Source of the DNA: a virus
Taxonomy: Duplodnaviria; Heunggongvirae; Uroviricota; Caudoviricetes
Reading direction: 5' to 3' (one strand)
Length of the DNA: 64,000 bases
IMG/VR virus record: IMGVR_UViG_3300029976_000110
Positions 17,517 through 62,336 of the stretch are shown in pieces (positions within the stretch are counted from its first letter, which is position 1; every line of letters starts with the position of its first letter). Made by a program: the position numbers and the translations under genes. Under the pieces are notes generated by a model. That model was not told the origin of the DNA, made no database searches, and saw nothing but the letters and a program-made list of their open reading frames with translations.

Positions 17517-17744
17517 CTACTCCTTTATGTTTCCATAAAGATTAGACTATATCATTACTCTCAATGAGAGACCTCCCACTTCCATCACCATTAACTTGTG
17601 ATGTACTCTACTCACTTCCATCTTGTTTAGATGTGTTTTCGATAGTCGTTGAACGTTCTTCTAATGAAGCTTCGTTGCTGATTATCCTCGACTCTACGTT
17701 AGGAGTTTCCAGCAATTCAAGAGGTTTTACGTCCGCATATTTTT
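17517..17744 (-). ncRNA. group I intron (ORF-less, ~228 nt) in nrdD
   Basis: P1: GUCCGU|aaaaauau|GCGGAC with U.G at the splice site. 5' block UGAAUUGCUGGAAACUCC is identical to the DNA polymerase intron 1. R GUUCAACGACUAUCG. S UAAUGAUAUAGUC. P9 CUUUAUG-GAAA-CAUAAAG. 3' splice site placed at GAGUAG|CUUUAC by analogy; the exact 3' boundary is uncertain by ~30 nt. Confidence 0.55.
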
Positions 17745-33931: not shown

Positions 33932-33988
33932 AATTAATTATATCACAAAAATAAAGCGACCAAAGTTTCCAAGTGATCAGTAAGGAAA

Positions 33989-35327: not shown

Positions 35328-35342
35328 ACTTATCCTGTTCCA

Positions 35343-35961
35343 TTATTTTAAAAGAAAGAATAACAAAAACCCAACACTAACAGAAATTCCACCTATTCTC
35401 CATACTAAAAGAGCTCGATTCTTTCTAGTAATTTGACTAGAAAGTTTCTTTTCTCTTTCTATAGACTCCTTATTAAGTCTATCATATTCTAGTAGTTGTA
35501 AGCTTTTTAAAGAATCTATCCTAGAAGTAACTTGATTACTTAACCTATAGTTTTGAATCTGCTCGTTTAATAACTTATTCTCTACTAATAGCTTTTTATG
35601 TTCTAGAAAAATTAAGTTAGTTTCCTTCAGCTCTTTGTAAGTTATTAGTACTGTCGAATCTGGCTCTATTCCACCTAAGGTAGTCGCGAAAGAAGGTATA
35701 GTCAGCATTAAGAGTGTTATTAATGATAGTGCTAACTTCTTCTTTGTACTGTTTATCATTATTTTGAATTAATATTTGTATTGTATCAATCCTAACTCCA
35801 ATTGAGTCCTTGGTCTTCTCTAAAGTAGATACTTCTACCCTCAGAGAATCTATTTTTTCAGTGCTAGGGGCAGATGTATTAGAATTTCTATATAGGAAAA
35901 GTCCTAATATTATGTTACAGATAAGTGAGAGAACAAAAATTATTCTAACTGCTTTATGCAC
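35343..35961 (-). CDS. two overlapping membrane/coiled-coil proteins (35617..35961 N-terminal TM + coiled coil; 35343..35759 signal/TM + coiled coil + C-terminal TM)
   Basis: Hydrophobic segments and heptad-like regions. The 143-nt frame overlap suggests an alternative internal start. Confidence 0.3.
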
Positions 35962-37183
35962 TTTTTCTGCTTATTAATCCAATTAAGATAGGTATTAACG
36001 TTATCAAGGAATTTTGGATTCTTAGCTATGTTATCTACAATAATTTTCTCAACCTCAGTAAATCCGTTCTTAATTCCTTCCATTTCTTTGCACTTTTCAA
36101 AGCGAGCTTTAGCATCTGCATATCCTGCAATATACTTTTCGGGATTAGCTTTTAGATATTCAGCTTCCTGCTTAAGTAAAGCACGAACCATTGTTGTATT
36201 AATTAAACCTCTATAACTTACAAATACAACAGGATCAGATTGTTTTGCTCTGCCTAAAGCTTTGCAAATACCAACTTTTTCTATAAATGTATCTTCTGGA
36301 TTACAAATACTTAATCCTAATTTAAGACCTTTAGAAACAGATCCAACTAAATCTGCATTAACTCCATCACTTGTAATAACATCACATTCATAAGGAAAAT
36401 CTTCACTGATTGCAGCGATAACAAAGTGATGAAGTCTGCCAGAATAATCAACGAACTGATCTTTTAGTAATTCTACGTGTTCCATTTTTAACTTTTGGTT
36501 TAGTTGGGACAAATAAAGGAAGTCCCATTTCCATAATAAAGCCTTCAGGTGCTCCAAGTAAAACTATTTCTTTAACTATCTTATACTCCTTAAAGTCCTT
36601 TACTTTTTGATCCTTCTTAATCTTTAGGAGTTTATCAGATTTATAGTATTTATCTCCAAGAAGACAAAATCCATTTTTCCAATATTTATAAGCAGATACC
36701 TCGTAGATAAAACAAGGAGCTATTTCAATACAAGCCCCGTTAAATACGTACAGGCCAGAAAGGGAGTTCGTTTGGTTTGTAAGTTCTTCCATTATAATAA
36801 TACTTACTTACTACTGACTCTATACAATTAGTTTTCTTATTCACTATGCAATATCTGCTAAGAATATCACTAATTTGATGCTGCCAGCAAATAGTAGAAT
36901 ATGTCGTATGAGGGAACTTTCGATTTTTCTTTAACTGAATAATTAGCTTAGCTCTCACAGGAATTACCCTCCTTGAGGATATAACCGAATGCATCTTACC
37001 CTTATGTTGACTTTTCATACTAGCTATCAGTTTCTTTTCCTTTAGAGTCTTTGTCCAAACGCTAGGATCTCTTGGAACTGCCTTTGGGGGTCGTATACCT
37101 AATTCAACCATTAGTGCATCATCGTGCACATTAACCCAACAATCCTCTTCATGTTGGATTACTTTTTTTACCTCTTTTTTCAT
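35940..37183 (-). CDS. hypothetical proteins (35940..36557; 36448..36792; 36740..37183)
   Basis: ORFs overlap in different frames; starts uncertain. Confidence 0.25.
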
Positions 37184-37261
37184 GCTATTATTACATTTTA
37201 TAACCTGTAAATTGCGTTAATGTAATCATATCAATACCACTACAACGTCCTAGTAGAAATC

Positions 37262-37726
37262 CTATTTACTGTACTTACTAAAAAATGAATTTACTATTTT
37301 TTGAATATTTCGATTGAAGTGAATATTATATTCTGAGTTCCAATGACCTATCTTATACACCCACTTGATATTCTTGGAAGATAAACCACCTATATAATAA
37401 GTATGATTACATTCTTCTGGATTTATAATACCTCCACCTTCTAAATAAATAGCATAGTGATAGCAAGTATTATATCCAGTTACAGAACTATCTTCTTCTT
37501 TGAAGTTTTTGACCATAGAAAAGACTTCGTGACTAATACCAAGTATATTCTTCTTTTCATCAGAATATACTATAAGTTGATAAGATAGCTTAAGTCTATC
37601 AAGGTGTCGTGCAATAAGATACGCAATGAAGCAACAACCACCTTTATTAATATTATAAGAACTCACTAAGTTTTCACAAAGCAAATTCAAATTATCTACT
37701 AACTTGTGAACATTTAATGCACGCAT
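37262..37726 (-). CDS. hypothetical protein, possible papain-like Cys/His peptidase
   Basis: NKGGCCFIAYLIA (candidate Cys nucleophile) and NTCYHYAIYLEGGG (candidate His). Confidence 0.2.
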   Translation of the reverse strand: MRALNVHKLVDNLNLLCENLVSSYNINKGGCCFIAYLIARHLDRLKLSYQLIVYSDEKKNILGISHEVFSMVKNFKEEDSSVTGYNTCYHYAIYLEGGGIINPEECNHTYYIGGLSSKNIKWVYKIGHWNSEYNIHFNRNIQKIVNSFFSKYSK

Positions 37727-38671
37727 AGTGCTTCCAATAATTCAATTTCTCTATTAAATTCATTTAAATACTCACTTAATTTTAAAGCTTCTGGATGTTT
37801 TTGACTTATCCTATATTGGACTACTTTCTCTAAAGCAGCATCAAGAGGTAAAGCATAAGCAACATTTTTAAATTCACATCTAGGTTCCCCACCTCTTGGC
37901 TTTACAACATATAATAACTCTAAATCAAAGTGAATACTATGTTCATTAACCGATGTTAACCGAAAGTCTTCTTCTTCTATTACCATTCCTTATTATAATT
38001 TATATAAAACTTGTCTGGAACATTAACTAACATAAGTTAGTTTTCACTTTCCTTTATACTTAGTTAATTTAGTTATCATGATGCAGCTCCAGTCTTTTGA
38101 TGAATACTGCCTGGACGAGTTAGAGATGCTTTATCCTTTTCTGGTAGCCTATCCCACCATACTTGTGCTGCCTTTAAGTTAGCCACTTTCTTTTTATATT
38201 TCATTACTTTATATTTAATTGTTCATTAATAGTAAAACGAATAAACCCAACAGCTTGAGGACAATCATATTCATCCATAGGGGCTAATAGTAAACCTCTC
38301 CAAGCAGGAATACGTTTATCCTTTTTAACTTCTCCTATTATAACTTTTCCTGTAATAAAAGAACTAAATTGTTGTTCAACATAATTAAGAGCTTCTTCAA
38401 CTGTATTAAAAGAAACTTCTTGAGCTAGTGCTTCCTCTAAAGGGACTGAACTACCTGTTAAGCTAACATGAACTCCTGTTATTTTAGCAAAAGTTCCATA
38501 ATTATAGTTCTTGTCACGATCATCACCATCAAGGTGAACAATACAGAAACTACATCTCTTATCAAGAATAGTTCCTATTTTACCAACATCATTTTTACGA
38601 AGTTGATTTTTAGTATTAGCGTGTAGAATTAATATTCTATCACCAACGTTGTAGTTATTTCTGAGTTTCAT
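37714..38671 (-). CDS. two hypothetical proteins (37714..37986; 38204..38671)
   Basis: ORFs of 90 and 155 aa. Confidence 0.3.
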
Positions 38672-38674
38672 AAT

Positions 38675-39700
38675 TTATTCCTCCTCATAATCGTCAGTCG
38701 TTCCTATCAGCTTGGCTGTCTTGTCGTTGTAGGGCAGGCACTCGTTAGCAAATCCGCAAAGGGTTCTATATGGATAATAGGGGTTCTCCTTATCGTAATG
38801 ACTAAACATCCCCGCCGTCCACTCACCAACTTCGTCATCGTCCTTACATCTTTCAACTATCCTGTCAAACGGCAGAAACCAATGTATGATTTTCCGCTTG
38901 CTCTTCGAGTAGTGCAGGTGGTTAGGCTCCAACATTTTCTCATTCCACTTGGTGATTTCTTCGGGGGTGGCGAGATGGGCGTGTTCTCCAAAGGCATCGC
39001 TGTCAAAATACCGCTGGATTAAACGTGGGTCTAATTCATACAATCGGTGAGTGGGATGTTCAGACGCGACCATGTATTTTGCGCCACAGATTACTACATC
39101 TCCCACCTTAAACTCAGGCTCCTCTTCTTTCTCTTCAAGTTTCAGCTCCGTGCCTGTAGAGAGGATGTATTCGTAACAATAAGGACGATAATTTATAGAA
39201 TGTGTGTTTATTTCATGTGTGATAGCATCTATATAAACAACACCTCCTGCTAAAAGATAAGTTGTATACAGACTTTTAATATAGCCCTCGTGTTCAAAGT
39301 ATTCAATAGCTTTAACTGTTTCTGCTTGATTATTTACTTTAATGTACTTAACCTTATAGAAACTCCAATCTTGAACATCCTTTGAAGGAAAAAACATTGG
39401 TTCCGCAGTTGGGTCCGCATTTACATCATAACCTTTAGAGTCGTAAGAACGTGCATCTCCATTATCAGCATAGACAAAAATAGAATTGTCTTCTATATGA
39501 GAAAAGACAACTTGACCACACTCTCTTGAATAAAATGGTGTATTTTCTTTACAGTCTCTTAGGAGTTCAATTAAGTTTAATTGAGTGTTATAGAATCCTA
39601 ATGTATTTTGTTGCTTCATCTTATTATAATTTGCTTTATTATAGTCAAAAATTACTATGGTATTAAATTTTTTTATACCATTATTCTTTTGTTTGATCAA
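38675..39700 (-). CDS. hypothetical protein; paralog of the partial gene at 1..940
   Basis: 341 aa. Shares the EYILSTGTELKLEEKEE block and a ~40-nt identical DNA island with the gene at the window start. Confidence 0.45.
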   Translation of the reverse strand: MIKQKNNGIKKFNTIVIFDYNKANYNKMKQQNTLGFYNTQLNLIELLRDCKENTPFYSRECGQVVFSHIEDNSIFVYADNGDARSYDSKGYDVNADPTAEPMFFPSKDVQDWSFYKVKYIKVNNQAETVKAIEYFEHEGYIKSLYTTYLLAGGVVYIDAITHEINTHSINYRPYCYEYILSTGTELKLEEKEEEPEFKVGDVVICGAKYMVASEHPTHRLYELDPRLIQRYFDSDAFGEHAHLATPEEITKWNEKMLEPNHLHYSKSKRKIIHWFLPFDRIVERCKDDDEVGEWTAGMFSHYDKENPYYPYRTLCGFANECLPYNDKTAKLIGTTDDYEEE

Positions 39701-40524
39701 TTCCTTCTATAGTACTTGGATAATTTATAAGCGGAAATCTCACAATACCTTCTTTTGGATCGTAGATGATGAAATAAATATCAAACATTGATTCATTATC
39801 TTCAAGACCAATAATGACACCATCTTCCGTATCAGAATGATATTCCTTACCAATATATTTTTGGAATTTCTCTGGAACGTCTTTTCCAAAGTATTGTGTT
39901 GTTATAAATTCTCCTTTATGACCGAGAAGATCTTTCTTAATAGTTTCTGTATAAATCATATTAATCCCACCAATCCCTTAAATATCGAGTTCTCCATTGA
40001 TTATAAATCTTCCATGCTTTTTGTTCATATAAATCAGCCATAACTGAGGGAGATTCATATTTAGAAAAGTCATCATCACTAAACCTGTTAGCATTGCGAG
40101 TGTTTACATACTTTAGAAGTTCCCATTCTCCATTACCTTTATAATTAATAATAGAGAAACCATTATCAAGTACAATATCTATAAGGCGAAGAGCAGTATT
40201 CATTCTTTCTACATCTCTTTCATATCCTACATGACTATGAAATTTAGCAATAGAATCTCGTACTCTTTTAATTTGTTCCCTTTCTACTATTAAAATAGAA
40301 AAGAAATCAGAGTCATAACACTCAAAGCAAGGTTTACGATATGCAAACCATCTCTTCACATTGTTAATAAATCTAAGAAACGACCCTTTGGCTTGCTGCA
40401 ACTGCCAACTTATCTGCTCTATTATTCCATTTAGTAAATTCTTTATCGTCATTTTGATGGCCTTTAACGTGTTTAAATTCAATTTTGTTGCAAAGAGTAT
40501 GAACTCTCTTAAATTCGTAATCAA
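39681..40524 (-). CDS. two hypothetical proteins (39681..39959; 39961..40524)
   Basis: ORFs of 92 and 187 aa. Confidence 0.3.
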
Positions 40525-40816
40525 AAACTTTCCAGAGAGATTGATTCTTTTTCCTTTTCCAACCTAGAGTAGCACATCCTATGCAATACTCACTATCAGT
40601 AACAATGGTTAAAGAATCAATTGGTTTCTTAATAGCCCTAAGACCTATTATAATAGCTGCTAATTCCATTTGATTATTAGTAGTATTATTAAAGCCTTTA
40701 GAATACTCAAGGATTACGTTATCTCCTTGTAAGAAGATAACTCCAATTCCACCTTGATCACGAGAAGAGGAATAGGCTCCATCTGTTATTAAAGTATATT
40801 TCATAAAAAAAGCCAT
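40373..40816 (-). CDS. rnhA: ribonuclease H (type 1)
   Basis: DGAY..GGIGV, MELAAII.GL, TDSEY, HVKGHQND..N.RADKLA. Confidence 0.8.
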   Translation of the reverse strand: MAFFMKYTLITDGAYSSSRDQGGIGVIFLQGDNVILEYSKGFNNTTNNQMELAAIIIGLRAIKKPIDSLTIVTDSEYCIGCATLGWKRKKNQSLWKVFDYEFKRVHTLCNKIEFKHVKGHQNDDKEFTKWNNRADKLAVAASQRVVS

Positions 40817-40851
40817 GCAAGAGCAAAAACTCTCACATAGCCCTGTAAATA

Positions 40852-41347
40852 TTAGGATCGAAGATAATTTACTACCGATTGTAATTTGTCAGCATCTTCA
40901 TTTCTAAATATAAACTCCTCAAAATCTCCATACTTGGACTTATGTCCGAAGATATATTTGATTGCATTTATAGGACGTTTCAAAAATCTATCTGGAATTA
41001 AATGTACTGATACGTAAACTTCCTTGTCATCTGGAAAATAAGAGAAGATGAGTTGATGTTCTGTACCATTACACTGACAAATAAATAACTTTGATATAAT
41101 CTTCTGATCTGTTGTATTTATCATATTATGTCTATAATTAATTCGAGGAATATAAATCTCTGTTTACTATTATTGATAATGTATCGGATGGTTCTTCGTA
41201 GAAGTTATCCACGATGTTTCCTTCGTTGTCCTTTCGAATAATACCTAAAGCCCATAGAGCTTGTGTAAATCGAAAAGTAGGATTCTTGCATAAAAACTCT
41301 GTAAGTAATGCAAGAATCTTCTTATTATATTCAATTCGGTCCATCAT
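40852..41347 (-). CDS. two small hypothetical proteins (40852..41124; 41138..41347)
   Basis: ORFs of 90 and 69 aa. Confidence 0.3.
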
Positions 41348-41479
41348 TAATAGCAGATATTATTAGTCTAATTCCTTCTTTTACTCCACAAGCGTGTGCC
41401 CTATTAACTAAATCATTTGCAATTCTGAGAGAAATAACTCCTTCAGATGAATATGTCAAAAGATCATCAATAACTTCTT

Positions 41480-41995
41480 TCATTTAATTCCTCCAGTATT
41501 GGCTCCTACACTAACAAAATTACTATCAGATCCAAACATATAGAGAGGTTCTTCAATACCTAAATGAAGTGGCAGGCGTAGAGTCATAAAATCTTCAGTA
41601 GGTTTAACTGTGTCTGTTTGATATAACAAATCAATAGCTTCCTTTAAAGATATTTTGGTTGACTTAATGCGAACATCTTGTAGCCACGGATCTACATAAG
41701 TTGTATATATTGGAGCGTTAAGAGAGTCAAATGTTACTATAAGAGTACGACCTGTAGACCCACTTAAACCATAAATGACCTTAGTTTCACTAACAATAAT
41801 GGTATCTGTTATCTCTCCACCTGCGTTTCTAACCAACTTTGTTTCTACCTCATAAAGTTGAGAAGTTGGATATTTAACGAGAACTGCAGAATCAACTGTT
41901 TTTAACATTCTGTCAAATGTCATTACTGAGGACTTGCTATTTCTACAAGCTGCTAGCAAAAGAGTAACAAACAAAAATAAGATTAATTTTTTCAT
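41480..41995 (-). CDS. lipoprotein (start at internal Met MKKLILFLFVTLLLAAC)
   Basis: Signal peptide with lipobox LLAAC. The ORF track's upstream extension overlaps the tRNA. Confidence 0.5.
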   Translation of the reverse strand: MKKLILFLFVTLLLAACRNSKSSVMTFDRMLKTVDSAVLVKYPTSQLYEVETKLVRNAGGEITDTIIVSETKVIYGLSGSTGRTLIVTFDSLNAPIYTTYVDPWLQDVRIKSTKISLKEAIDLLYQTDTVKPTEDFMTLRLPLHLGIEEPLYMFGSDSNFVSVGANTGGIK

Positions 41996-42071
41996 ATTAT
42001 TAAAATTTATTGAATCGTTATAAATCGATAGCAAAGTAATATAGAAAACGATACTATATCTATTAATAAAG

Positions 42072-42154
42072 TCCGCGTGAGGAGATTCAAACTCCCAATC
42101 CACAAGGGCCCCGAAGTTTAAGTTCGGTCTGTATATCAATTCCAGCACACGCGG
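42072..42154 (-). tRNA. tRNA-Leu (anticodon UAA), long variable arm
   Basis: Acceptor CCGCGUG/CACGCGG, discriminator A73. Anticodon arm CCGAA-CUUAAAC-UUCGG. T-arm GGGAG-UUUGAAU-CUCCU. 14-nt variable region. Confidence 0.6.
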
Positions 42155-42243
42155 TCATCTCTAACACAGAGTCAGAGAATAAATTAAAAGCTCTACTACT
42201 TTCACAAGCAATAGAGCTAGACTTAATTTTATTTAGACAACAA

Positions 42244-43233
42244 TTATTTTACTACAATAGTAGCTACTCTACCACTAGTTATACTAGCAGCACCTATGCC
42301 TGTAGAGTTAATTACTTTTACTCCACGATCAGTTAAGAAGTCAGTAACTACCTTAGCACGCTTCTCAGATAGAGTTTGGTTATACTCAGCACTTCCTTCT
42401 ATAGAAGCTTCACCAATTACATTAACTTCTGTTCCTTTTGCTATCTTTGACAGAGTTGTCATAGAAGTTGCGGTTAACTCATCGGAGTTCTGTGCAAAGT
42501 ATACTACATACTCACCACTTCCAACTTCTCTAATTACTTCTTTAGTTGTAACAACTTCCTTAACGGTAGGCTTCTTTGCCAATTCAGCCTTTAGAGAGTT
42601 AATTTCACTATTCAAAGCGGCAATATCATAAGTTTTAAACGAGTGAGTTCCATTAGATGTAGGGAAATGATATACATAACCTACTTCTAAAGCAAGCTGT
42701 GCATTATGCTTATTAAACTGTAGCTTTCCACTTCTAGAAAGATTCCAGTAAACGGCTGGGCTAACTACTATTGAATGTACATCACCAATATTAAATGAAG
42801 CAACTACACCAGTCTTAGCAGTTAAATCATTCTCATGTCCAGTCCAACTATGCAACCATCCAATACCAGTTTCTGTAGACACTTCAAATTTTCTCGGATG
42901 TCCTAGATAACCACATAGCAAGTTACTAAAGTTTATTACTCCATTAACTCCAGTGTTAATAGAGCGAACTACAGTAGAAGCATTACCATAGTGATTATCG
43001 CCAAACGAGGCAAGACCCTCGACATTTACACCTATAACAGGGGTAAAATCTTTCTGAACTTTCAATCCTACAACACCATTAAGAGGAAATGTAGAACTAA
43101 AATCAAGGGGAGTTGTTGCTCCACCTACTACACCAATAGAAATGTTATCAAGAATTTTAGACTCTTGATAAGCTGTTTGTGCTGAAGCACTTAGAGTAAA
43201 CAGCAAACTCATTAAGAAAATTAATTTTTTCAT
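42244..43233 (-). CDS. OmpA-family outer-membrane protein (N-terminal beta-barrel-like domain + C-terminal OmpA domain)
   Basis: Signal peptide MKKLIFLMSLLFTLSASAQ. C-terminal OmpA-like block YFAQNSDEL..SEKRAKVVTDFL..GV. Confidence 0.55.
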   Translation of the reverse strand: MKKLIFLMSLLFTLSASAQTAYQESKILDNISIGVVGGATTPLDFSSTFPLNGVVGLKVQKDFTPVIGVNVEGLASFGDNHYGNASTVVRSINTGVNGVINFSNLLCGYLGHPRKFEVSTETGIGWLHSWTGHENDLTAKTGVVASFNIGDVHSIVVSPAVYWNLSRSGKLQFNKHNAQLALEVGYVYHFPTSNGTHSFKTYDIAALNSEINSLKAELAKKPTVKEVVTTKEVIREVGSGEYVVYFAQNSDELTATSMTTLSKIAKGTEVNVIGEASIEGSAEYNQTLSEKRAKVVTDFLTDRGVKVINSTGIGAASITSGRVATIVVK

Positions 43234-43580
43234 AATTTGTAATTACATTAAACATTATTTAATCTTCATACTAAAAATGTCAGTTTCTTATACTTAGTGA
43301 AACTGACAAATATCTAAACTACCACCCTCTCTGTGCATCAGAGTAACTTTAGCACTGAACGTAGGTATTGCCTTATTACACGTTCTTATTGTAGATTTAC
43401 AGAACACCTTTGAATACCTCTTTATTCTAAAGAGAGTAATCGGAGAAACTATCCTATATTAACCTCAATAGGCATTGGACTAGACCAGCTAGCCATTACT
43501 TGTTAGTTTTAGTTACAATGGTTTTAAGAAAAAAATCTTGCTGCAAGTGTTCTTTTATATGTATAATTTGAGGTATAATT

Positions 43581-43871
43581 TTATTCAACCATAAATCCAT
43601 ATCCAAATCCGTTACGAGTTTGAATATATTTTCCGTATGCTCCTAACTTCTTTCTAAGTCTTGATATTGTTACATCAACTACTCTAAAAGATACTTTCTT
43701 TTGCCAAACAGTTTCTATAATCTCTTTACGAGTAAATATCTTATTTTGATTTTCAAGAAGAAATTGCAACAATAGATATTCATGTCTTGTCAAATATACT
43801 TCTTTGTTTTCAATTAAACAAATTTTCTGATCAAAATTTAATGTTAAGTCTTTAAAAGATATTTTATTCAT
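43581..43871 (-). CDS. OmpR/PhoB-type winged-helix DNA-binding domain protein (stand-alone trans_reg_C)
   Basis: LTRHEYLLLQFL..IFTR.EII..VW...V.ISRLRKKL..IQTRNGFGYGF. Confidence 0.55.
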   Translation of the reverse strand: MNKISFKDLTLNFDQKICLIENKEVYLTRHEYLLLQFLLENQNKIFTRKEIIETVWQKKVSFRVVDVTISRLRKKLGAYGKYIQTRNGFGYGFMVE

Positions 43872-43890
43872 ATTTTTACTTGTATAATTG

Positions 43891-43962
43891 TCTCCCTAGC
43901 AGGAATCGAACCTACATCTATAATTTAGAAAAATATTGCTCTATCCATTGAGCTATAGGGAG
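43891..43962 (-). tRNA. tRNA-Arg (anticodon UCU)
   Basis: Acceptor CUCCCUA/UAGGGAG. D-arm GCUC-AAUGGAUA-GAGC. Anticodon loop UUUCUAA. T-arm GUAGG-UUCGAUU-CCUGC. Confidence 0.7.
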
Positions 43963-44024
43963 AAATAGGTACTATTATCACTAACCGTACCTATAATAAT
44001 AAATATATGAAAAGGTTAAATAAT

Positions 44025-45866
44025 TTAACCCTTATTTTCTTCAGTCTTTCCAACAATTGCATTAAGAGTTTTCTTAAATGGTATAGATTTAAGAAGTTCA
44101 AATGCAGGATTAAGATTTTCAGCCATGCTAGCCATAAATTGACCTGCAGTATTCTCATTACCATATACAGTAACTTCTCCAAGGTGAATATGTTCAAATA
44201 CCTGAGCTTGTGCTTCAGCAATACCCTTAAGCTGATCAACAGTCTTAAACTGAACCACCATTTCTGGGGTCATACCTGTTTCAATCATCTTCTGGACAGC
44301 TAGTGCAGGAGCCATTTCAATAGCTTGAACCTTATCGGCCTCAGCCATCAAAGAAGCTCTCTTGCCCTCTGCTTCAGCAAGAAGCTTCTTCTTGTTACCT
44401 TCTGCTTCAGCTTCAGCTTTAGTTTGTATTGCAGTAGCTTCTGCAAAAGCCTTCTGACGAATAGCTTCTGCTTCTGCTTCTGCTTCTACAACTTTCTTCT
44501 GTTTCTCGGCTTCTGCTTGAATAACAATCTCTTCTTTCTTCTTCTGAGCAGGAACAATTACTTCTGCATTAAGCTTAGCTTCAGCAGCTTTAGCAGTTTT
44601 ATTAGCAATCTCTATTTCGGCTTCCGCCTTAGAAACACCTGCTACTCGCTGTGCTTCTGCTTCAGCTTTAGCAGCCTCTCCTTTAGCAGTCGATACTTCA
44701 ATAGTCGCTCTTTGTTCTGCTACGCCAGCTTTCTTATTAGCTTCAGCAGATCTTTGTCTCTTTTGAGATTCAAATTCTGCTACTTTGGCTTCCTGCTCGT
44801 TGATAGCTTCCTGTGTCTTTGCTTCTTGCTCTTGCTCTGCCTTAGCAATACGAACCTGCTTCTGAGCTTCTGCTTCAGCTTGTGCCGCATTAGCTTCTGC
44901 TTCAGACTTGGCAATAGATGCAACTGCTTCTGCTTTACGAGCTGCTTTAGCTGATTCTGCTTCTGCCTTAGACTTGGCCATATTAGCTTCCATCTCTGCA
45001 GTTTGAGCAGCCTTACCAGACTCTCTAAGCTTTTCTGCTTCCGCAAGTTTAATTTCCTTATCCTTGTCAATCTCAGCAACATTTATAGCTTGTTCTTGAC
45101 GAGCTTGTGCTACTTGAGTTTCTCTTTCTTTGTTAGCTTGAGCAACGGCAATATCCTTTTCCTTAGTAGTTTCAGCTATCTGAATTTGTCCTTTCTTCTC
45201 CTCCTCTGCAATATCTGCTTGTGCTTGTGCTTGTGCTTTAGTTGCAGCTTTCTTACCAAGATTCTCAATATAATTTGCATCATCCTTGATTTCAGCATTA
45301 TTAATATTGATAATAGTAAAACCTACTTTATTAAGTTCTGTTTCAATACTTTCCTTAGCTTTACCTAAGAAAGCAACACGATCAGCATTAATTTCTTCAA
45401 TGGACATAGTAGATACAACACTTCTCATTTCACCAATAAGAATATCAGTGATTTGCTGAGAAATTTCGTTTGTAGAACAAGTTAAGAATCTACTAGCAGC
45501 ATTTTGCATAAGAGTATCTGTTGTTCCAATACCAGTTGTTAATGTAACAGGAATTGTAACATTAATAAACTGAGAAGTAGGGCCTTTTACAGTAGCTTGA
45601 ATCTGAATAGGTTTAAGAGACATTTTCCTCCAATCTTGGATTACTGGAAATACAAACGTACCTCCACCATGAATTATTTTAGAAGGAAGAATGACAGTTT
45701 CATTCCTACTCATCTTTGGATTGAAGACGGTTTTCTTTCCTGCTTTACCAAAGACAACTAAGATTTCATCACTCGCACATCTACGATAGCGAGACATCAG
45801 ACCAATAATGGTCAAAATTACAAGAATTGTTATAATCCCAGTAACAATTAAAGTTGAATCAATCAT
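44025..45866 (-). CDS. flotillin-family SPFH/band-7 protein with long Ala/Glu-rich coiled-coil repeats
   Basis: N-terminal TM. SPFH-type region (ILVVFGKAGKKTVF..PKMSRNETVILP..LKPIQ..). Flotillin-like EA repeats. C-terminal flotillin tail. Confidence 0.7.
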   Translation of the reverse strand: MIDSTLIVTGIITILVILTIIGLMSRYRRCASDEILVVFGKAGKKTVFNPKMSRNETVILPSKIIHGGGTFVFPVIQDWRKMSLKPIQIQATVKGPTSQFINVTIPVTLTTGIGTTDTLMQNAASRFLTCSTNEISQQITDILIGEMRSVVSTMSIEEINADRVAFLGKAKESIETELNKVGFTIININNAEIKDDANYIENLGKKAATKAQAQAQADIAEEEKKGQIQIAETTKEKDIAVAQANKERETQVAQARQEQAINVAEIDKDKEIKLAEAEKLRESGKAAQTAEMEANMAKSKAEAESAKAARKAEAVASIAKSEAEANAAQAEAEAQKQVRIAKAEQEQEAKTQEAINEQEAKVAEFESQKRQRSAEANKKAGVAEQRATIEVSTAKGEAAKAEAEAQRVAGVSKAEAEIEIANKTAKAAEAKLNAEVIVPAQKKKEEIVIQAEAEKQKKVVEAEAEAEAIRQKAFAEATAIQTKAEAEAEGNKKKLLAEAEGKRASLMAEADKVQAIEMAPALAVQKMIETGMTPEMVVQFKTVDQLKGIAEAQAQVFEHIHLGEVTVYGNENTAGQFMASMAENLNPAFELLKSIPFKKTLNAIVGKTEENKG

Positions 45867-46364
45867 TTAAGAAATATTATAAATACCTGAATTAAAAGCA
45901 ATTATTTGACAGATTTCTCCTTGTTTTTTAGGAGAATCTGATATACATACAATTTCAGTATAAGGCTCATCCATTAGATAGCAGGAACTTCTTCCGTCTG
46001 ATAACGGGGCATATACTACAACTTTCTTACCTATAAGAGCAGACCCCGACTTTGTAGTAGGTTCATAATTGAACTTCATACAAAGTTTATATAGGAAGAA
46101 TAGAGCAACCACAAAAATGATTCCTACTATAACTGCTCCTATAATAGTTGCAATAGTTACTTGTCCATTAAGCATTAGCCATCCAGAGAACCCCATAACG
46201 AAGTGAGTTAGTCCTTTAAAAGACAATAAATCACTTGCACCAAAGTCAATATTTCCATCACAGTCTACATCCAAATCCATATCTCCAATCCCAAGATTAG
46301 ACAATATGAATTGAATAATAAAAATACCGTAGGAAATTATACCTAAAATATAATACCACTCCAT
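45867..46364 (-). CDS. NfeD-like membrane protein (flotillin partner, YuaF/YqiJ-like)
   Basis: Multiple TM segments plus a C-terminal soluble OB-like domain. Sits immediately upstream and translationally coupled, in the same order as yuaF-floT. Confidence 0.55.
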   Translation of the reverse strand: MEWYYILGIISYGIFIIQFILSNLGIGDMDLDVDCDGNIDFGASDLLSFKGLTHFVMGFSGWLMLNGQVTIATIIGAVIVGIIFVVALFFLYKLCMKFNYEPTTKSGSALIGKKVVVYAPLSDGRSSCYLMDEPYTEIVCISDSPKKQGEICQIIAFNSGIYNIS

Positions 46365-46368
46365 AAGA

Positions 46369-46962
46369 TTAGTCTATCCATTCCCAATCGCAATTGATGC
46401 CTCCATATTGTACTTCAAATAGTAGTTTACCAAAGTACGTTGAAAGATGTTTAGCAATCTCTTGAGAAGAAACTGATTGAAAGCCAGCAGTCATCGTGCA
46501 AACATCTGAGACCGTACTACCCGAATGGAAACAACCGAGACCAGTTCCAACATTGACAAATGCGTAGCTGCCAACAATCTCAAATACTCTTCCTTCGGAT
46601 TTAATGCGTCCAAGAATCTTATTACCAAGGCAAGATTTTATATTTCCAGGAATACATAATTCGATAGTTGGAATCCATCTTTCTCCAGTAATAAGATGCC
46701 TTTTTTCATTATTAGTAAGAGCAAAGACTACTATTCTCCATGCAACAACCGAGCTGGAATAAGAATCTTTCGGAGCAGCGTAGTACTCTTTAAGAATTGT
46801 TTTAGCTTCCTTGCAACCCTTATTTGCAAAGTCTATAACAGTGTCTAGAGCTTTCGTGAAGGTACAAATACTCTCCAGAGAGTCTATGTCTACAAACTCA
46901 ATTCGTCCATCTTTCCAAACAACTTCTTTATTGTCTGGAACTTCAATTGTTATCTGTTTCAT
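46369..46962 (-). CDS. hypothetical protein
   Basis: 197-aa ORF. Confidence 0.3.
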   Translation of the reverse strand: MKQITIEVPDNKEVVWKDGRIEFVDIDSLESICTFTKALDTVIDFANKGCKEAKTILKEYYAAPKDSYSSSVVAWRIVVFALTNNEKRHLITGERWIPTIELCIPGNIKSCLGNKILGRIKSEGRVFEIVGSYAFVNVGTGLGCFHSGSTVSDVCTMTAGFQSVSSQEIAKHLSTYFGKLLFEVQYGGINCDWEWID

Positions 46963-46964
46963 AT

Positions 46965-48197
46965 TTAGTTAATTATAAAGTTCTTTGAAAAAAGTATTTC
47001 CTCGAATCTAAGATCATTACCAATATAATCCCTATTGTTTGTCTGATTTCTTTTAAGAATACATAAACGATTAATTCCATCAAGTACTCTGTCAGCTACT
47101 TCTTTAGGATAAATCTCAGTTACAATACCTACTAAATTGTTATTAGGAAGTTTCTTATAAGGAGTTTCCTCTGCGAACTTCAGTATAGCATTAAAGATAT
47201 AAATCCATAGTATAATTTTATTTAAATTATATGTAGGACGGAGTAATCTAAACTCTATCGTTTTGTTTACAGTATAACAGATAGCATTAATGAAGTTACA
47301 CCAGAAATAACGGGTATGGACTTGCCATTTTCTATTCCTTCCTATGTCATTTGGGTGTGGCTGAGTTAGATCTCCAAAAAACTTCTTTCCTACCAAGTAT
47401 TCATACATTTGGTTAAAGTCCCTAAAATTTTTTAATGGATTACAGTAATCTTTACCATTATTTTTGTACCTGGCAGAATTAAAAGTATACTGTGGAACAA
47501 GATCAACAATGTCTTTTTCTAGTAACTTACACAAATAATATAAGTCATATAACTTCTGAGGATCAAGTGGGTACCCACCAAAATGTATATGCAATGAACA
47601 TTCTTTGTTAAAGACAGTATATTCATTTAGTGTAGTTACTTCTTGTTCTAAAAGAGCTAATCCTTCACTTCCTCTTAAAACAACAGAAGAATATTCTATT
47701 CCATCAATAGATCCATCCCTTAAAGGTATTAATCCATCTCTGAAGCATAATTCTTCTGGCACATAGCCCATAGAAGTTTCAAATTCAAGTCCGAAACTAT
47801 ATTTTAGGTATTTACTTAAAGTAAACTCCTTCTTTGATACGATTTGTCTTCCTTCAAAAAGACGGAAACTCTCTATAGCCTCATATCTTCGTTCAAAGTT
47901 ATAAGGAAACTTTCCTTGGCCAAAAGTACATACTTCGTTGATAACAATGTCTTCAGGAACTCCAGTTTTATCAAACCAAAATCCACCTTTGTTACTATAA
48001 CACAGGTTTGCATTTTTTATGTAAACATTTTTAAATCGGAATGGGAACGCCTCTCCTGTATAAACTCCAATTGTTTTAATGTCCTTCGTATCTTGAAAAT
48101 ATCCATAAACCGTTAAATCTGGAGTATGAGATACAATCGCTCTAATACTTTTACTAAAGTCTACAGCTTTTCGAGATACTTCATCTATTACTTGCAT
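46965..48197 (-). CDS. GCS2/glutamine-synthetase-fold amidoligase-like protein
   Basis: FGLEFETS..GSIDG.EYSS and CSLHIHFGG (Glu/His ligand blocks of Amidoligase_2-type enzymes). Confidence 0.45.
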   Translation of the reverse strand: MQVIDEVSRKAVDFSKSIRAIVSHTPDLTVYGYFQDTKDIKTIGVYTGEAFPFRFKNVYIKNANLCYSNKGGFWFDKTGVPEDIVINEVCTFGQGKFPYNFERRYEAIESFRLFEGRQIVSKKEFTLSKYLKYSFGLEFETSMGYVPEELCFRDGLIPLRDGSIDGIEYSSVVLRGSEGLALLEQEVTTLNEYTVFNKECSLHIHFGGYPLDPQKLYDLYYLCKLLEKDIVDLVPQYTFNSARYKNNGKDYCNPLKNFRDFNQMYEYLVGKKFFGDLTQPHPNDIGRNRKWQVHTRYFWCNFINAICYTVNKTIEFRLLRPTYNLNKIILWIYIFNAILKFAEETPYKKLPNNNLVGIVTEIYPKEVADRVLDGINRLCILKRNQTNNRDYIGNDLRFEEILFSKNFIIN

Positions 48198-49516
48198 TCT
48201 TTCTCAACAGATTTAAAGTTAATTTCTACTTTCTTAGGAATATACTCGTCAAGATCTCTAACACCTGCATTAAAAGTATTTTTTATTACTTTTCCACCCA
48301 GATATTCTGTCCTACTACTAATTGAGAGAGGTTGAAAAGAACCAGTAAATAAAATAGCCTTAGTTGGAGATATAGCTCTATACATTAGGCCATCTTCTCC
48401 TTTAAAGACTTCATCTACGCTAAGATAACGAATTAGAGTTTGATTTTTCTTTCTAAATTTTATACCATCCAAACCACTTTTCCTTCTAAGAATACAGAGA
48501 AATCTAAAGCATTTATCGTTCTTTAGCATTACCCCATCAAAGAACCAAAAGGGTTTAGTTGGAGACATTTTTCTAGAGGAACTAATTTCAACTCTTCCCC
48601 ATTTACTTAACATTATCTTTCCGTTTGCTCTTTTTCCTTTAAACAAATAAATATTTTGGCTAAGGTCTTGAGTAATCCAGTTACTATACATTGAATCTTC
48701 CAATTCGAATATACTTCTATGAGATCCAAAATCTCTAAGTTCTGGATATACTATTTCCATCTCTCTAGATTGAGTCATTTTATTTCTTGGACAATCCTTA
48801 ACTTTGACAAGTTCTTTTCCATCAAATTCCCATAAGACATTAGCTGCTAAATTCCAAACATTTAAGTCTTTTCGTAAAGCAAGAAGATGTGTTCCAATGG
48901 AAGAAAATATAAGCTCTCTCTTAACTGAATCTATACAGTAACAAAGAGGTCTTTCTTCCTCTTCTTCCTTAGAATAAGTATGTTTCTTAGAAGAACCTTT
49001 AAACAGATATGTATGTGGACCATAATTTCTATAGTCAATGGTAACAAAGGCAGAACCTCCATTATATTCACTTAATACATCATATCCACTATAATAGAAT
49101 ATTCGTGCCATAACTTGAGAATCAGTCATACCACTAATATCTATTTCTGGAATATACTTAGCTGCAAGCTCCTTATAATTGTATATAGTTCCATTATGAA
49201 GTACTACAAATTCTACTTCTTCCTTATCATTAGTTAAAATAACAGGTTGAGCTGTTTCCTTTGTAATTTTTCCAATAGATGCCTTTCGACAATGTAACAA
49301 AGCCACTTTTGCAGTTTTTGTATTGAATAGAAGCTCACTTTCTGGAAAGTACGCTCGGAAGTATTTTTCTTTATCTACTCCATACTCGTATTTTCCATCA
49401 ATAAACACTCCACAAGAGTCACCACCTCTACTATCATTAGCTATTCCTAAAACACAAAATGCGCTATAGTCAAATGCTCTAGGAATTTTATTAACAATTC
49501 CTGCTAATCCACACAT
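48188..49516 (-). CDS. class-II (Ntn) glutamine amidotransferase domain protein
   Basis: N-terminal MCGLAGIV (Cys2 nucleophile right after the Met). GATase-2-like first ~230 aa. Confidence 0.55.
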   Translation of the reverse strand: MCGLAGIVNKIPRAFDYSAFCVLGIANDSRGGDSCGVFIDGKYEYGVDKEKYFRAYFPESELLFNTKTAKVALLHCRKASIGKITKETAQPVILTNDKEEVEFVVLHNGTIYNYKELAAKYIPEIDISGMTDSQVMARIFYYSGYDVLSEYNGGSAFVTIDYRNYGPHTYLFKGSSKKHTYSKEEEEERPLCYCIDSVKRELIFSSIGTHLLALRKDLNVWNLAANVLWEFDGKELVKVKDCPRNKMTQSREMEIVYPELRDFGSHRSIFELEDSMYSNWITQDLSQNIYLFKGKRANGKIMLSKWGRVEISSSRKMSPTKPFWFFDGVMLKNDKCFRFLCILRRKSGLDGIKFRKKNQTLIRYLSVDEVFKGEDGLMYRAISPTKAILFTGSFQPLSISSRTEYLGGKVIKNTFNAGVRDLDEYIPKKVEINFKSVEKECK

Positions 49517-50301
49517 ATCGTGTATGCTTTTATGATTTTAGACGCTAACTCTACATCACTATTATTTATAGCTGTTTGTATGTCTGAAGAATTAGCTAGA
49601 GGATATCCGCTATTATGAGCGGTTATTGCCCTACTAACCTGTCTCCAAACAAATCGAATTAAGTCTATATCTTTCATCAATGCGGAAGATAATACTCGAT
49701 ATTCACATCCGTATGGTTTAAGCCTAAAACATCCAGCCTTTCCATATAAGGATCTTCTCTTTTTATCAGAGTCTTTCAATATTGAAGGTATACCTAAATA
49801 CATATCTAAGTATTTGATTAACATTAGACTAGTATCAATATTGTTGTAATCATATCCTAGATGGATATGCATTCCTGCTGAGCGGATATTAGTTCTATTT
49901 CCTTTTGGCTTAGGGTTAGCTTCTTCAGTATACGCATTAAAGTCTATATCGCAGCCAAATTCCTTAGCTTGAGGAGACTTTAATTGGCTCGTAGGAACTA
50001 AAGCTGAAGCTGTACACATAATTCCAAGTTTGGGATTCTTACTTTTTACAAACTTGTCAATATATTGTTTCATATATTCAATGCTATTGATAAATGAAAC
50101 TTCGCTTGTACAAGGAGGAATATTAAATTCGGATAATATGTTATCAGTTTCTATCCCAAAACCATTTGGCATATCATCCGCTTTATAAGGGTTTCCTTTT
50201 TCTCCAGGAATAAGACCAATAGCAGAAACTACTTTCTTCGTTTCTTCATTTATTATAAAAAGCTCTGGATCAGCTCCTATAGTAACATTAGTTATTTTCA
50301 T
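49504..50301 (-). CDS. amidoligase-like protein (second paralog)
   Basis: IGADPELFII, GFGIETD, SAGMHIHLGYD. Confidence 0.45.
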   Translation of the reverse strand: MKITNVTIGADPELFIINEETKKVVSAIGLIPGEKGNPYKADDMPNGFGIETDNILSEFNIPPCTSEVSFINSIEYMKQYIDKFVKSKNPKLGIMCTASALVPTSQLKSPQAKEFGCDIDFNAYTEEANPKPKGNRTNIRSAGMHIHLGYDYNNIDTSLMLIKYLDMYLGIPSILKDSDKKRRSLYGKAGCFRLKPYGCEYRVLSSALMKDIDLIRFVWRQVSRAITAHNSGYPLANSSDIQTAINNSDVELASKIIKAYTICVD

Positions 50302-50917
50302 TGACTAACTTTGTTATAAGGTTACTAATCATTTCTGCGACAGGAGAATTTGGAATCATTTCTGGATGCCCCTGTACTGCTAAACACTTAGGTAAACCTT
50401 GCTTATGATATAATACTATTTCTGGTTCACCATTGTCCAGTATTTCCTCAGGGTCAATCTTATCCCCTTCATAGTAATCGCTCCCAACTCCGAAAGCAGT
50501 AAAGAGTAAGTCATAATCTTCTTTAGGAAGGTTATAAGGATACTGCATTTGATGATGAGTAGAAGTTATTTCATATATAACCTTTCCGTTAGTTATGCCA
50601 TGAGTATAACCAGTAGCATGACAGCCACAATTTTGGACTAGTAAGCCCCCATTGAGCACTGACATCAGCTGAGACCCCCGGCATATACCTAAACAAAGCT
50701 GATTAAGCTTTACTTGATCAAAGATTTTCTTTTCTTCTTTGTCCCTTTTCAAGTTACTATGGGTTGTTCTATGCTTCGTACATCCATATAAGGATGGACT
50801 TACATCTTCACCTCCAGTAAACAAAACAACGTCTGCTTCTTCTAGATTACTAACCAGAGTAGCATCCTTTATAAAATTAGCGTAGTGTGTAGCTCCGCCT
50901 ACAACGTATATCTTCAT
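50288..50917 (-). CDS. class-I glutamine amidotransferase-like / C26 gamma-glutamyl hydrolase-like protein
   Basis: LGICRGSQ (GxCxG catalytic-Cys block), later H/E. ~209 aa. Confidence 0.5.
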   Translation of the reverse strand: MKIYVVGGATHYANFIKDATLVSNLEEADVVLFTGGEDVSPSLYGCTKHRTTHSNLKRDKEEKKIFDQVKLNQLCLGICRGSQLMSVLNGGLLVQNCGCHATGYTHGITNGKVIYEITSTHHQMQYPYNLPKEDYDLLFTAFGVGSDYYEGDKIDPEEILDNGEPEIVLYHKQGLPKCLAVQGHPEMIPNSPVAEMISNLITKLVNENN

Positions 50918-50927
50918 TTCTTAATAT

Positions 50928-62221: not shown

Positions 62222-62270
62222 GTTCGTCCAAGTCTCATCAATGATAATTTTAACGACTCCTTAGCTGTCG
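62222..62270 (-). repeat. conserved ~48-nt intergenic element, copy B
   Basis: See copy A. Lies 67 nt 3' of 62337..62669. Confidence 0.5.
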
Positions 62271-62336
62271 ATGTATTTTCTACTAAAAATAAATATGACT
62301 TACATAAAAGCAAAGGGAGCTAATGCTCCCAATGCC

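Follow-up and report, generated by a model that had tools for sequence, protein, structure and literature searches.

What is a flotillin operon of bacterial appearance doing among the replication genes of a phage? The question is raised by a 64,000-nt stretch of DNA assigned to the Caudoviricetes (IMG/VR record IMGVR_UViG_3300029976_000110; hereafter the window). Within it, positions 41,480–46,364 encode five proteins, all from open reading frames (ORFs) on the minus strand: a flotillin, a partner with three transmembrane (TM) helices, a winged helix-turn-helix protein (wHTH), an OmpA-type protein and a lipoprotein. A preliminary description, made from the sequence alone, had treated these five as one block of host-like membrane cargo in a phage replication region, punctuated by tRNA genes. 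The five protein features are indeed present and in that orientation (ORF list and domain scans). The order of transcription is 165-aa partner, floT, tRNA-Arg, wHTH, a 347-nt leader, OmpA, a hairpin, tRNA-Leu and lipoprotein: the OmpA, lipoprotein and wHTH genes, which had been placed upstream of floT, are all three downstream of it in the sense of transcription.

The analyses that follow separate the block into units with different histories. The data show that the partner gene and floT were acquired together from a host operon of the Bacteroidales type, that they have diverged deeply from it, and that they have been under purifying selection across at least nine sequence-distinct phage lineages. 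We regard the identity and history of this nfeD2–floT operon as very likely. Its specific role, as a membrane scaffold during takeover of the host, is put forward tentatively and by analogy with cellular systems; for identity, history and mechanism combined we estimate a probability of roughly 0.6.

The flotillin and its NfeD-like partner

The 613-aa product of floT had been described as an SPFH domain followed by a long Glu/Ala-rich coiled coil, and all comparisons agree. Pfam Band_7 (PF01145) matches residues 34–224 (E=1.7e-21; 77.5 bits against a cutoff of 23.6), the sole NCBIfam match is to FloT (E=2.3e-33), and a search of PDB sequences returns five matches, all to human flotillin-2 or flotillin-1 (best E=2.5e-17), with the flotillin-2 alignment extending to residue 390 of the window protein. 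Escherichia coli YqiK aligns end to end (to residue ∼550) with 23% identity (E=4e-9). The layout consists of a hydrophobic N-terminal anchor (residues ∼5–24), the SPFH domain, a coiled coil (∼225–500) that reads as rich in Ala, Glu, Lys and Gln, and a conserved C-terminal region. By these alignments the protein is a true flotillin-class SPFH protein, nearer to flotillins than to stomatin, prohibitin or HflK/C.

Homologues of the flotillin number in the hundreds and lie on contigs of 165–193 kb, where homologues of its partner are found as well. Among deposited phage records they are scarce: 10 of 50,697 match and one does so over its full length, in keeping with the preliminary view of the module as unusual. 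Scans of IMG/VR with a single protein (flotillin or wHTH) recovered 1–2 loci; alignment-based scans found many more. At the DNA level a search of the phage collection yielded no close relative, only tRNA matches, a 300-bp fragment and a group I intron match.

The gene before floT ends in a stop codon that abuts the floT ATG, leaving a spacer of 0 nt. Its 165-aa product has no NfeD match in Pfam or NCBIfam, even at E≤10, and 35 phage members of the family scanned singly against the same two collections gave no match to NfeD, YqiJ or DUF1449. Structure prediction is more informative. An AlphaFold2 (AF2) model, built on the phage-family alignment, contains helices at residues 3–23, 49–66 and 71–98 followed by five strands (114–164), at a predicted local distance difference test score (pLDDT) of ∼90. 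Searched against the PDB with Foldseek, the top match of this model is E. coli YbbJ (8z5g; E=1.1e-5 over 130 columns), in an alignment that spans both the TM helices and the oligonucleotide/oligosaccharide-binding (OB) domain at a sequence identity of 14%. YbbJ is the NfeD subunit of the QmcA–YbbJ SPFH–NfeD complex (Tan et al. 2024, as cited in PMC13086221). The next matches are OB domains of NfeD proteins (3cp0, TM-score 0.73; 3wwv, 0.72; 2exd, 0.60); generic OB folds (IF1/eIF1A) also match, and the fold alone is not specific.

A connection at the sequence level runs through the cellular members of the family. Homology searching with the 165-aa protein returned 165 matches, all metagenomic, with exact copies only on contigs of 1–2 kb. 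Phage members share a layout of TM1, an acidic loop (DxDxDVDFDGxxDFDxSD), an invariant SFKGLxHFxMGFSGWL stretch, TM3 and a variable beta-rich tail. Cellular members from Paludibacteraceae, Desulfobulbaceae and a metagenome-assembled genome (MAG) of Pseudomonadota match the whole of the Pfam NfeD model PF01957 at 4.5e-5 to 3.5e-3 (18–24 bits against a cutoff of 29.1), and the same proteins match the phage-family hidden Markov model at 5e-37 to 4.5e-12. A broad profile of phage and cellular members (A3) gave weak matches to Bacillus subtilis YuaF (2k14, E=0.004) and to 3wwv (E=0.099), while a phage-only profile searched against PDB sequences found nothing but a TM-helix match to ErbB2. The top match of the broad profile, 'Cake4', was rejected as an artefact of repeats, since no single stretch of it passes by itself.

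The Asp-rich loop of the partner (residues ∼26–47, between TM1 and TM2) is conserved in both phage and Bacteroidales copies and is absent from the sequence of E. coli K-12 YqiJ. AF2 confidence in this loop is below 50. The loop resembles the DxDxDG type of metal-binding loop, with binding itself putative.

Flotillin partners in general have been described as having three hydrophobic stretches, an all-beta domain and very weak similarity to NfeD, and as co-evolving and being transferred together with their flotillins (PMC2636767). We accept the 165-aa protein as NfeD-like, of the YuaF/NfeD2 type, because of its predicted structure, its position in the operon and the weak sequence link; Pfam NfeD itself does not match it. 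The NfeD–flotillin pair of the preliminary description therefore stands as regards canonical order and NfeD-type structure; the proposed Pfam check fails for NfeD, and structure plus a transitive profile link are needed in its place.

Known operons provide close parallels. In B. subtilis yuaF–yuaG and E. coli yqiJ–yqiK (Hinderhofer et al. 2009, PMC2636767) the order is the same, a short NfeD-type gene and then a flotillin. The window flotillin has the layout of the SPFH2 type (anchor, SPFH, Glu/Ala-rich coiled coil and C-terminal region), shared with YqiK from end to end, and its partner shares with the NfeD2 type three TM helices followed by an all-beta domain at the C terminus, in addition to the profile match to YuaF given above. 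Unlike either operon, the pair is encoded by a virus and lies within a replication block. Identity to YqiK is only 23%, there is no significant link to YqiJ/DUF1449, and YqiJ lacks the Asp-rich loop of the window partner. The QmcA–YbbJ cage (8z5g) provides a model for an NfeD partner sitting with an SPFH cage; here a single protein was modelled, and QmcA, unlike the window flotillin, is of the stomatin type (SPFH1).

Origin of the pair and its maintenance in phages

The surroundings of the pair are those of a phage. PHROG scans of 20 other large ORFs identified DNA polymerase, primase, DnaB, helicases, RNA and DNA ligases and exonucleases, together with a split NrdD and a sigma factor; all replication genes are on the strand of the block, and nfeD–floT has their orientation. 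The best annotated matches of the primase are in crAss-like genomes (cr*_1, and phages of Bacteroides, Flavobacterium and Cellulophaga). The 'phage replication region' of the preliminary description is thus confirmed: the window is such a block, from a large phage of the crAss-like group. The subgroup is probably Zeta, whose genomes are 145–192 kb, intron-dense and rich in tRNAs (PMC7886860) and whose members have been described as lytic (PMC12386605). This assignment is made because relatives of 165–193 kb and the RNA elements of the window (two hammerhead ribozymes, six tRNAs and the group I intron of nrdD) fit the description of that group; it draws on replication genes and RNA features, the structural genes lying outside the window and the loci compared.

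Could the block nevertheless be host chromosome, or the product of a chimeric join between phage and Bacteroides? Its genes look cellular, GC content climbs to 0.415 at 44–45 kb, and three flotillin homologues of 68–69% identity are found in 'bacterial' MAGs. The GC bump, however, is a matter of amino-acid composition: the coiled coil has a GC content of 0.43 but a GC content at third codon positions (GC3) of 0.225, which is phage-like. A codon-usage and GC comparison, as the preliminary description had proposed, finds strand, skew, GC3 and codon adaptation index (CAI) of the block genes to be those of phage genes, with every block gene inside the GC3/CAI range of 33 phage reference genes. In addition, window positions 44,213–46,522, across orf197–nfeD–floT, are matched at 99.9% by two contigs from other samples, the gene order recurs in many viral contigs of 165–193 kb, and relatives at ∼70% nucleotide identity keep the order amidoligase cluster, nfeD, floT, tRNA-Arg and wHTH. 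True Bacteroidales flotillins are only 36–39% identical, and the MAG homologues at 68–69% are on contigs of 140–186 kb in bins of unrelated phyla, which points to mis-binned phage. Composition, the match from independent samples and the conserved order together exclude a host segment or chimera for practical purposes, and we give that scenario next to no credence.

The MAGs that contain these three contigs with phage-type flotillins (L084, L085 and L086) bear the labels Gastranaerophilales, Bacteroides sp. and Clostridium sp.; the contigs themselves are most likely genomes of phages, wrongly binned with bacteria.

Among cellular flotillins, those of Bacteroides, Parabacteroides and Phocaeicola are the closest. 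Identity of floT to Bacteroidales copies is 36–39% by tblastn and 42–44% over trimmed columns; the corresponding figure for nfeD is 30–36% (trimmed columns). In these three genera and in Paludibacteraceae, the gene directly upstream of floT is a homologue of the partner (E from 1e-28 to 1e-48 overall, and from 1e-35 to 1e-48 in the three genera), and more distant bacteria have the same partner–floT arrangement with weaker scores. The nearest cellular homologues of the pair are therefore the same two-gene operon of Bacteroidales, and the pair was rightly called host-like and canonical in order. In Phocaeicola vulgatus ATCC 8482 (L112), Bacteroides thetaiotaomicron (L102) and Parabacteroides goldsteinii (L107), the closest cellular relatives for both genes, the two genes are arranged likewise with a gap of ∼20 nt, and the partner is ∼165 aa with the same acidic loop. 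The host flotillins are shorter (542–566 aa, against 613–688 aa in phages), and the phage clade forms a branch of its own.

Neighbour-joining trees of FloT and NfeD, rooted at the midpoint and carrying no support values, agree with each other, and the distances in the two proteins correlate with r=0.90 over 378 pairs; the published value for SPFH2a/NfeD2a is 0.91 (PMC2636767). The clade of the window forms one phage branch, which has the Bacteroidales copies as its sister group and an internal flotillin identity of 53–78%. A second group of phages is placed elsewhere. csAssE-Sib (OR575929.1), a human-gut phage, and its IMG/VR relatives L079–L083 carry a 164-aa TM protein and a flotillin in the replication module, both homologous to those of the window and with the TM gene directly upstream of floT. 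The csAssE-Sib/L079 flotillin groups with Bacteroidales, being ∼70% identical to Bacteroidaceae copies and only ∼40–43% to that of the window, which indicates that the csAssE-Sib group captured the pair separately and more recently. Taken together, the trees, the correlation of distances and the placement of csAssE-Sib support the view that gut phages captured the whole operon at least twice, and that one of these captures is old.

Other phage proteins with an SPFH domain are known: PHROG 200, annotated 'lipoprotein' (phrog_200, E=1.3e-9), a 'flotillin family protein' of Vibrio phage KIT04, and a protein of phage GIB1 (PMC13239085). These have the SPFH domain in common with the window flotillin, but the match is confined to that domain (25–29% identity over ∼40%), and no long coiled coil or NfeD partner was seen in the matches. 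The role of SPFH proteins in phages has been stated to be unclear (PMC13239085).

For unsaturated pairs of sequences the ratio of nonsynonymous to synonymous substitution rates (dN/dS) is 0.01–0.09 for floT and 0.03–0.23 for nfeD. From these low values we conclude that both genes are functional in the phage. Rather than a recent peculiarity of this genome, the pair is an old component of a whole phage clade that has been kept by selection.

A variable segment and the other genes of the block

The distribution of the block genes was followed by tblastn through 83 flotillin-anchored loci, which span at least nine sequence-distinct phage lineages; a few of them represent the same contig twice and many come from near-identical strains. 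In 82 of the 83, nfeD is immediately upstream of floT, a figure that measures gene linkage and not prevalence in the clade, given that the loci were found by way of the flotillin and that many strains are near-identical. The remaining genes are far less constant. orf197, the gene before nfeD, occurs at 43 loci, the wHTH gene at 12, the amidoligase trio (the first three genes of that cluster, in constant order) at eight, and the OmpA gene at five, plus L164–L166. The lipoprotein gene is at none and was met only in L164/L165 (82%). With conservation so divergent, the five genes cannot be read as one cargo block.

The sole locus without a detectable nfeD is L071 (9078–11794), where floT lacks its first 57 residues, and hence the membrane anchor, and the position of nfeD is occupied by ∼900 bp of unrelated sequence. 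This floT may be a disrupted copy or reflect an insertion. orf197 is never found beside the cellular operon and is often linked to the phage pair; scans of Pfam, PHROG and NCBIfam gave no family match for it.

Comparison with near relatives defines the limits of a variable segment. Three of them (L164, L165 and L166; 85–90% nucleotide identity) are collinear with the window on both sides, over 33,019–43,875 and again from 52,795. At this site these three, as well as L176 and L177, are without nfeD–floT: a diversity-generating retroelement (DGR) cassette takes the place of the segment in L164/L165, and ∼0.7 kb does so in L166. Since tRNA-Arg stands directly before the wHTH gene in all near relatives, it belongs to the conserved flank, and the variable segment accordingly extends over ∼43,963–52,794. 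It contains orf319, orf240, the four genes of the amidoligase cluster, orf197, nfeD and floT, the last two being the final genes of this tightly packed nine-gene array, which begins after the 52.7-kb terminator. The terminator hairpin (52,716–52,683) coincides with the break in synteny at ∼52,795, and at the other end the segment stops right at tRNA-Arg; the suggestion that a tRNA marks a variable spot is borne out.

The DGR occupies L164 3587–7791 (equivalent in L165) and comprises a bAvd accessory protein, an RVT_1 reverse transcriptase and flanking ORFs.

A search anchored on the wHTH gene gave 12 loci with nfeD–floT within 10 kb, and others without the pair: L167 and L168 (the L164 and L166 contigs as they appear in IMG/VR), L176, L177 and, more distantly related, L185 and L186. 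L177 lacks only orf197–nfeD–floT, its amidoligase genes abutting the wHTH gene; in L179–L181 the order is wHTH–nfeD–floT. nfeD–floT thus behaves as a discrete, movable accessory cassette of two or three genes, and the genes for the wHTH, OmpA-type protein and lipoprotein are accessory genes in their own right, each more narrowly distributed. As to presence in related phages, which the preliminary description had offered as a check, the outcome is divided: nfeD accompanies floT almost throughout the flotillin loci, and the pair is missing from this site in the nearest relatives.

The patchiness bears on two other explanations. One is that the pair is a decaying passenger, picked up by chance and with no role in the phage. 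It would fit the absence of the genes from the nearest relatives and the 5′-truncated floT of L071 with its missing nfeD. It does not fit a dN/dS of 0.01–0.23 in many pairs of lineages, intact ORFs, retention of the partner at all but one of the 83 loci, or codon usage that is fully adapted to the phage, and we judge it very improbable.

The other explanation is that the genes form an envelope-directed module for superinfection exclusion or defence against other phages, in which FloT/NfeD, the OmpA-type protein and the lipoprotein would jointly block adsorption or injection. Genes in and beside the segment vary among close relatives, as defence genes often do, and a DGR cassette sits at the same site in L164. 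Phage outer-membrane proteins and lipoproteins are, moreover, classic exclusion or moron genes: lambda Lom (an eight-stranded barrel outer-membrane protein), lambda Bor (a lipoprotein) and T5 Llp are envelope morons, non-virion and present as small, self-standing units. The OmpA-type protein and lipoprotein of the window parallel these by description, with no sequence relation claimed; unlike Lom, the window protein is predicted to be a two-domain OmpA with a peptidoglycan-binding domain, and the phage is probably lytic (PMC12386605). Against a joint module is the failure of the envelope genes to travel together (82, five and none of 83 loci for nfeD, OmpA and lipoprotein), so that they are not one obligate system. 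In addition, PADLOC (PADLOC-DB v2) assigned no family to the ten proteins of 41,480–50,917; flotillins reside at the cytoplasmic membrane and are not documented to act in exclusion; conservation of the pair is deeper than is typical of fast-turnover defence cargo; and the group has been described as lytic (PMC12386605). We regard exclusion as unlikely.

The features of the locus and of the adjoining segment are collected in Table 1.

Table 1. Features of the nfeD–floT locus and the adjoining variable segment (positions in the window).
Feature	Position	Strand	Evidence
nfeD2-like gene, 165 aa	45867..46364	(-)	ORF, AF2, Foldseek, family alignments
floT-type flotillin (SPFH2), 613 aa	44025..45866	(-)	Pfam Band_7, NCBIfam FloT, PDB flotillins
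tRNA-Arg (UCU)	43890..43962	(-)	ARAGORN and Rfam (66 bits)
Predicted stand-alone OmpR/PhoB-type wHTH, 96 aa	43581..43871	(-)	Trans_reg_C, 2.4e-21
Non-coding leader 5′ of OmpA gene, 347 nt	43234..43580	(-)	Sequence, conservation
Predicted OmpA-type outer-membrane protein, 329 aa	42244..43233	(-)	Pfam OmpA, AF2, Foldseek
Terminator-like hairpin, 13 pairs and T run, directly 3′ of OmpA gene	42189..42218	(-)	
Probable tRNA-Leu (UAA), class II	42071..42154	(-)	ARAGORN, cloverleaf fold, synteny
Predicted lipoprotein, 171 aa from internal ATG	41480..41995	(-)	ORF, weak lipoprotein-signal matches
orf197, phage-specific protein, 4 nt upstream of nfeD	46369..46962	(-)	
Amidoligase_2, class II glutamine amidotransferase, COOH-NH2 ligase and GATase-like genes	46965..50917	(-)	Pfam, PHROG, NCBIfam
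Variable segment, ∼8.8 kb, nine genes	43963..52794	(-)	blastn synteny, gene tables
Strong terminator-like hairpin, 15 pairs and T run, upstream edge of variable segment	52683..52716	(-)	

The amidoligase-cluster genes overlap or abut one another and lie upstream of orf197–nfeD–floT in the same array. Its COOH-NH2 ligase matches phrog_3815 at E=4e-68, and by its domain content the cluster looks like a peptide- or metabolite-ligation system.

The wHTH protein scores 76 bits against Trans_reg_C (cutoff 26.2) over residues 23–92, and no receiver domain was found in the Pfam scan. Its best NCBIfam match is to the C-terminal part of Bacteroidetes PhoB (1.5e-29). The nearest representatives are themselves stand-alone proteins of 90–105 aa, and full regulators match only in their C-terminal domain (positions ∼131–225). 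Judging from these matches the protein is an effector domain alone, not a response regulator, and could act as a constitutive binder of Pho boxes.

For the OmpA-type protein, PF00691 (OmpA_C) gives 40.3 bits against a cutoff of 27.2 (E=4.1e-10). The signal sequence read from the ORF is MKKLIFLMSLLFTLSASA|Q, and the AF2 model (pLDDT 81.6) has a signal peptide, eight strands (residues 31–189), a linker helix and an alpha/beta domain. Foldseek matches include full-length E. coli OmpA (1e-8), the OmpA TM domain, the OprF barrel (TM-score 0.76), Pal/YfiB and C-terminal domains of OmpA. The model therefore presents a full OmpA type, with a predicted eight-stranded barrel and a peptidoglycan-binding domain. 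Cellular relatives at ∼50–55% identity are found on contigs of bacterial size, which suggests a more recent host origin for this gene than for the flotillin.

The lipoprotein was listed as an ORF of 222 aa that overlaps tRNA-Leu, with its GTG start inside the tRNA. The real start is most likely the internal ATG at 41995 (MKKLILFLFVTLLLAAC, with lipobox), from which the product is 171 aa with the putative signal MKKLILFLFVTLLLAA|C; the sequence ...LLLAA|C fits a lipobox. LPAM_1 reaches 14.8 bits (cutoff 20), NCBIfam lipoprotein signals match at residues 52–72 of the long ORF, and Pfam and NCBIfam contain no known domain for this protein.

Of the two tRNAs said to punctuate the block, tRNA-Arg(UCU) is called by both ARAGORN and Rfam and stands directly upstream of the wHTH gene in L164, L166, L007 and L008 as well, whether a flotillin is present or not. 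tRNA-Leu(UAA) is called by ARAGORN and has no match in Rfam at E≤1; it folds as a class II cloverleaf and is called at the syntenic site in L164, L007 and L001.

The leader is 84–90% conserved in L164 and L166, stays with the OmpA gene despite gene insertions in L166, and closes with a hairpin of 9 bp and a run of T. No Rfam family matches it, and a z-score of −1.6 leaves its fold short of significance; we do not claim it as an RNA element. A scan for sigma-70 promoters found 45 against 48 expected from shuffled sequence, not above background.

Several further features lie elsewhere in the window. A group I intron (RF00028, 78 bits, full model) splits the NrdD-like gene at 17523–17799 (-), between ORFs 16237–17373 and 17743–18642, and the site has short megablast matches to annotated group I introns of Staphylococcus phages. 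Two RAGATH-1 hammerheads, at 60542–60640 (-) with 72.8 bits and 62203–62271 (-) with 60.4 bits, both exceed the Rfam gathering score; they are in the tRNA-rich end of the window, as is a tRNA at 59280–59351 (-) that Rfam found and ARAGORN missed. The DNA polymerase ORF (4180–5694 (-), 504 aa) covers only positions 775–1152 of a 1445-position PHROG profile, and an intron or intein may interrupt the gene; genes split in this way have been reported for this phage group (PMC7886860). In relatives, suppressor-type tRNAs were called (anticodon UUA as 'tRNA-Stop', CUA as 'Pyl'), along with an ARAGORN 'tmRNA' (L002 2473–2543, L008 14512–14591 and L001 1805–2292). The suppressor-type tRNAs fit with the reassignment of stop codons that crAss-like phages have been reported to show (PMC12386605).

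Possible role of the pair and its meaning

How might the pair act? FloT would insert into the cytoplasmic membrane of the host by the hydrophobic anchor at its N terminus, and NfeD by its three TM helices, the two being made by coupled translation (stop, then ATG). The OB domain of NfeD would dock on the SPFH domain of FloT, and the long coiled coil would drive FloT oligomerization into a cage that fences off a patch of membrane. The phage would in this way supply a scaffold of its own, probably not mixing with that of the host: deep divergence from the host copy and tight co-evolution of the partners are the grounds for picturing a self-contained pair. The most likely purpose would be to keep the membrane and its proteins stable or organized during takeover; control of a membrane protease, or of a membrane client of the phage, would be a less likely one. 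Protease control and interference with the host flotillin would both be near variants of this role. The analogues are FloT/YuaF, FloA/NfeD, QmcA/YbbJ and the flotillin cages cited in PMC13086221 and PMC2636767. As a statement of specific function, a membrane scaffold during takeover is possible, and we offer it with reserve.

The likely host already possesses a homologous operon, so that a second copy needs a reason, and interference with the host might supply one. Phage FloT/NfeD would then mix or compete with the host flotillin, or with an FtsH-type protease, and disable a response concerned with membrane stress or quality control. HflK/C and QmcA/YbbK are known to associate with FtsH (PMC2636767), and the coiled coil of the phage proteins is longer than that of the host's (613–688 versus 542–566 aa). 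Deep divergence and the co-evolution of the partners (r=0.90) are nonetheless a better fit to a self-contained pair, and we consider interference rather improbable.

A number of points weigh against the reading of a captured, self-contained scaffold operon. The FloT score of the flotillin, 116 bits, compares with an equivalog cutoff of 700 (NF058507), and the protein is not a Bacillus FloT orthologue; chromosomal flotillins of Bacteroides also fall below that cutoff, at 141–158 bits. The partner is under the threshold of Pfam NfeD (PF01957), and alignment of the broad profile with E. coli YqiJ by hhalign has a probability of 1%, which is not significant. The trees are midpoint-rooted neighbour-joining trees without support values, the long phage branch could stand for fast evolution rather than age, and the pair could have passed from phage to host instead of being captured from the host. 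The tally of loci speaks to linkage, and the closest relatives of the window are without the pair at this site, where at least it can be dispensed with. Finally, every step of the mechanism rests on analogy.

A more far-reaching idea, which we consider improbable, is that a cage belonging to the phage alone, and unmixed with that of the host, would amount to a membrane compartment made by large crAss-like phages in the inner membrane of Bacteroides, organizing replication, assembly or a long-lasting infection of low damage. Were this true, capture of the operon from hosts on two occasions would mark it as a recurrent solution for phages of this group.

What was already known comprises the operon type, SPFH proteins in phages, and the GenBank label 'flotillin family protein' on the csAssE-Sib gene. 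A literature search turned up no paper on crAss-like phages and flotillin together, a search for csAssE yielded irrelevant matches only, and neither PMC12386605 nor PMC7886860 mentions flotillin, SPFH or membrane. New here are a clade-wide flotillin–NfeD operon, maintained by selection, in large crAss-like phages, the evidence for two captures of the operon, and the division of the block into independently varying units. Annotation would easily lump the old cassette with faster-changing envelope genes, which are here separated; the results also flag phage contigs that have been mis-binned in bacterial MAGs.

CrAss-like phages are among the human gut's most abundant viruses, and the large Zeta-type members are uncultured and poorly understood. 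An operon that has been retained, and captured twice, suggests that infection of Bacteroides involves a step at the level of the membrane that is worth its cost. It also provides a natural experiment on the function of flotillin and NfeD: the diverged pair is probably independent of the host copy, variants with and without it exist at ∼85–90% genome identity, and the host genus is genetically tractable.

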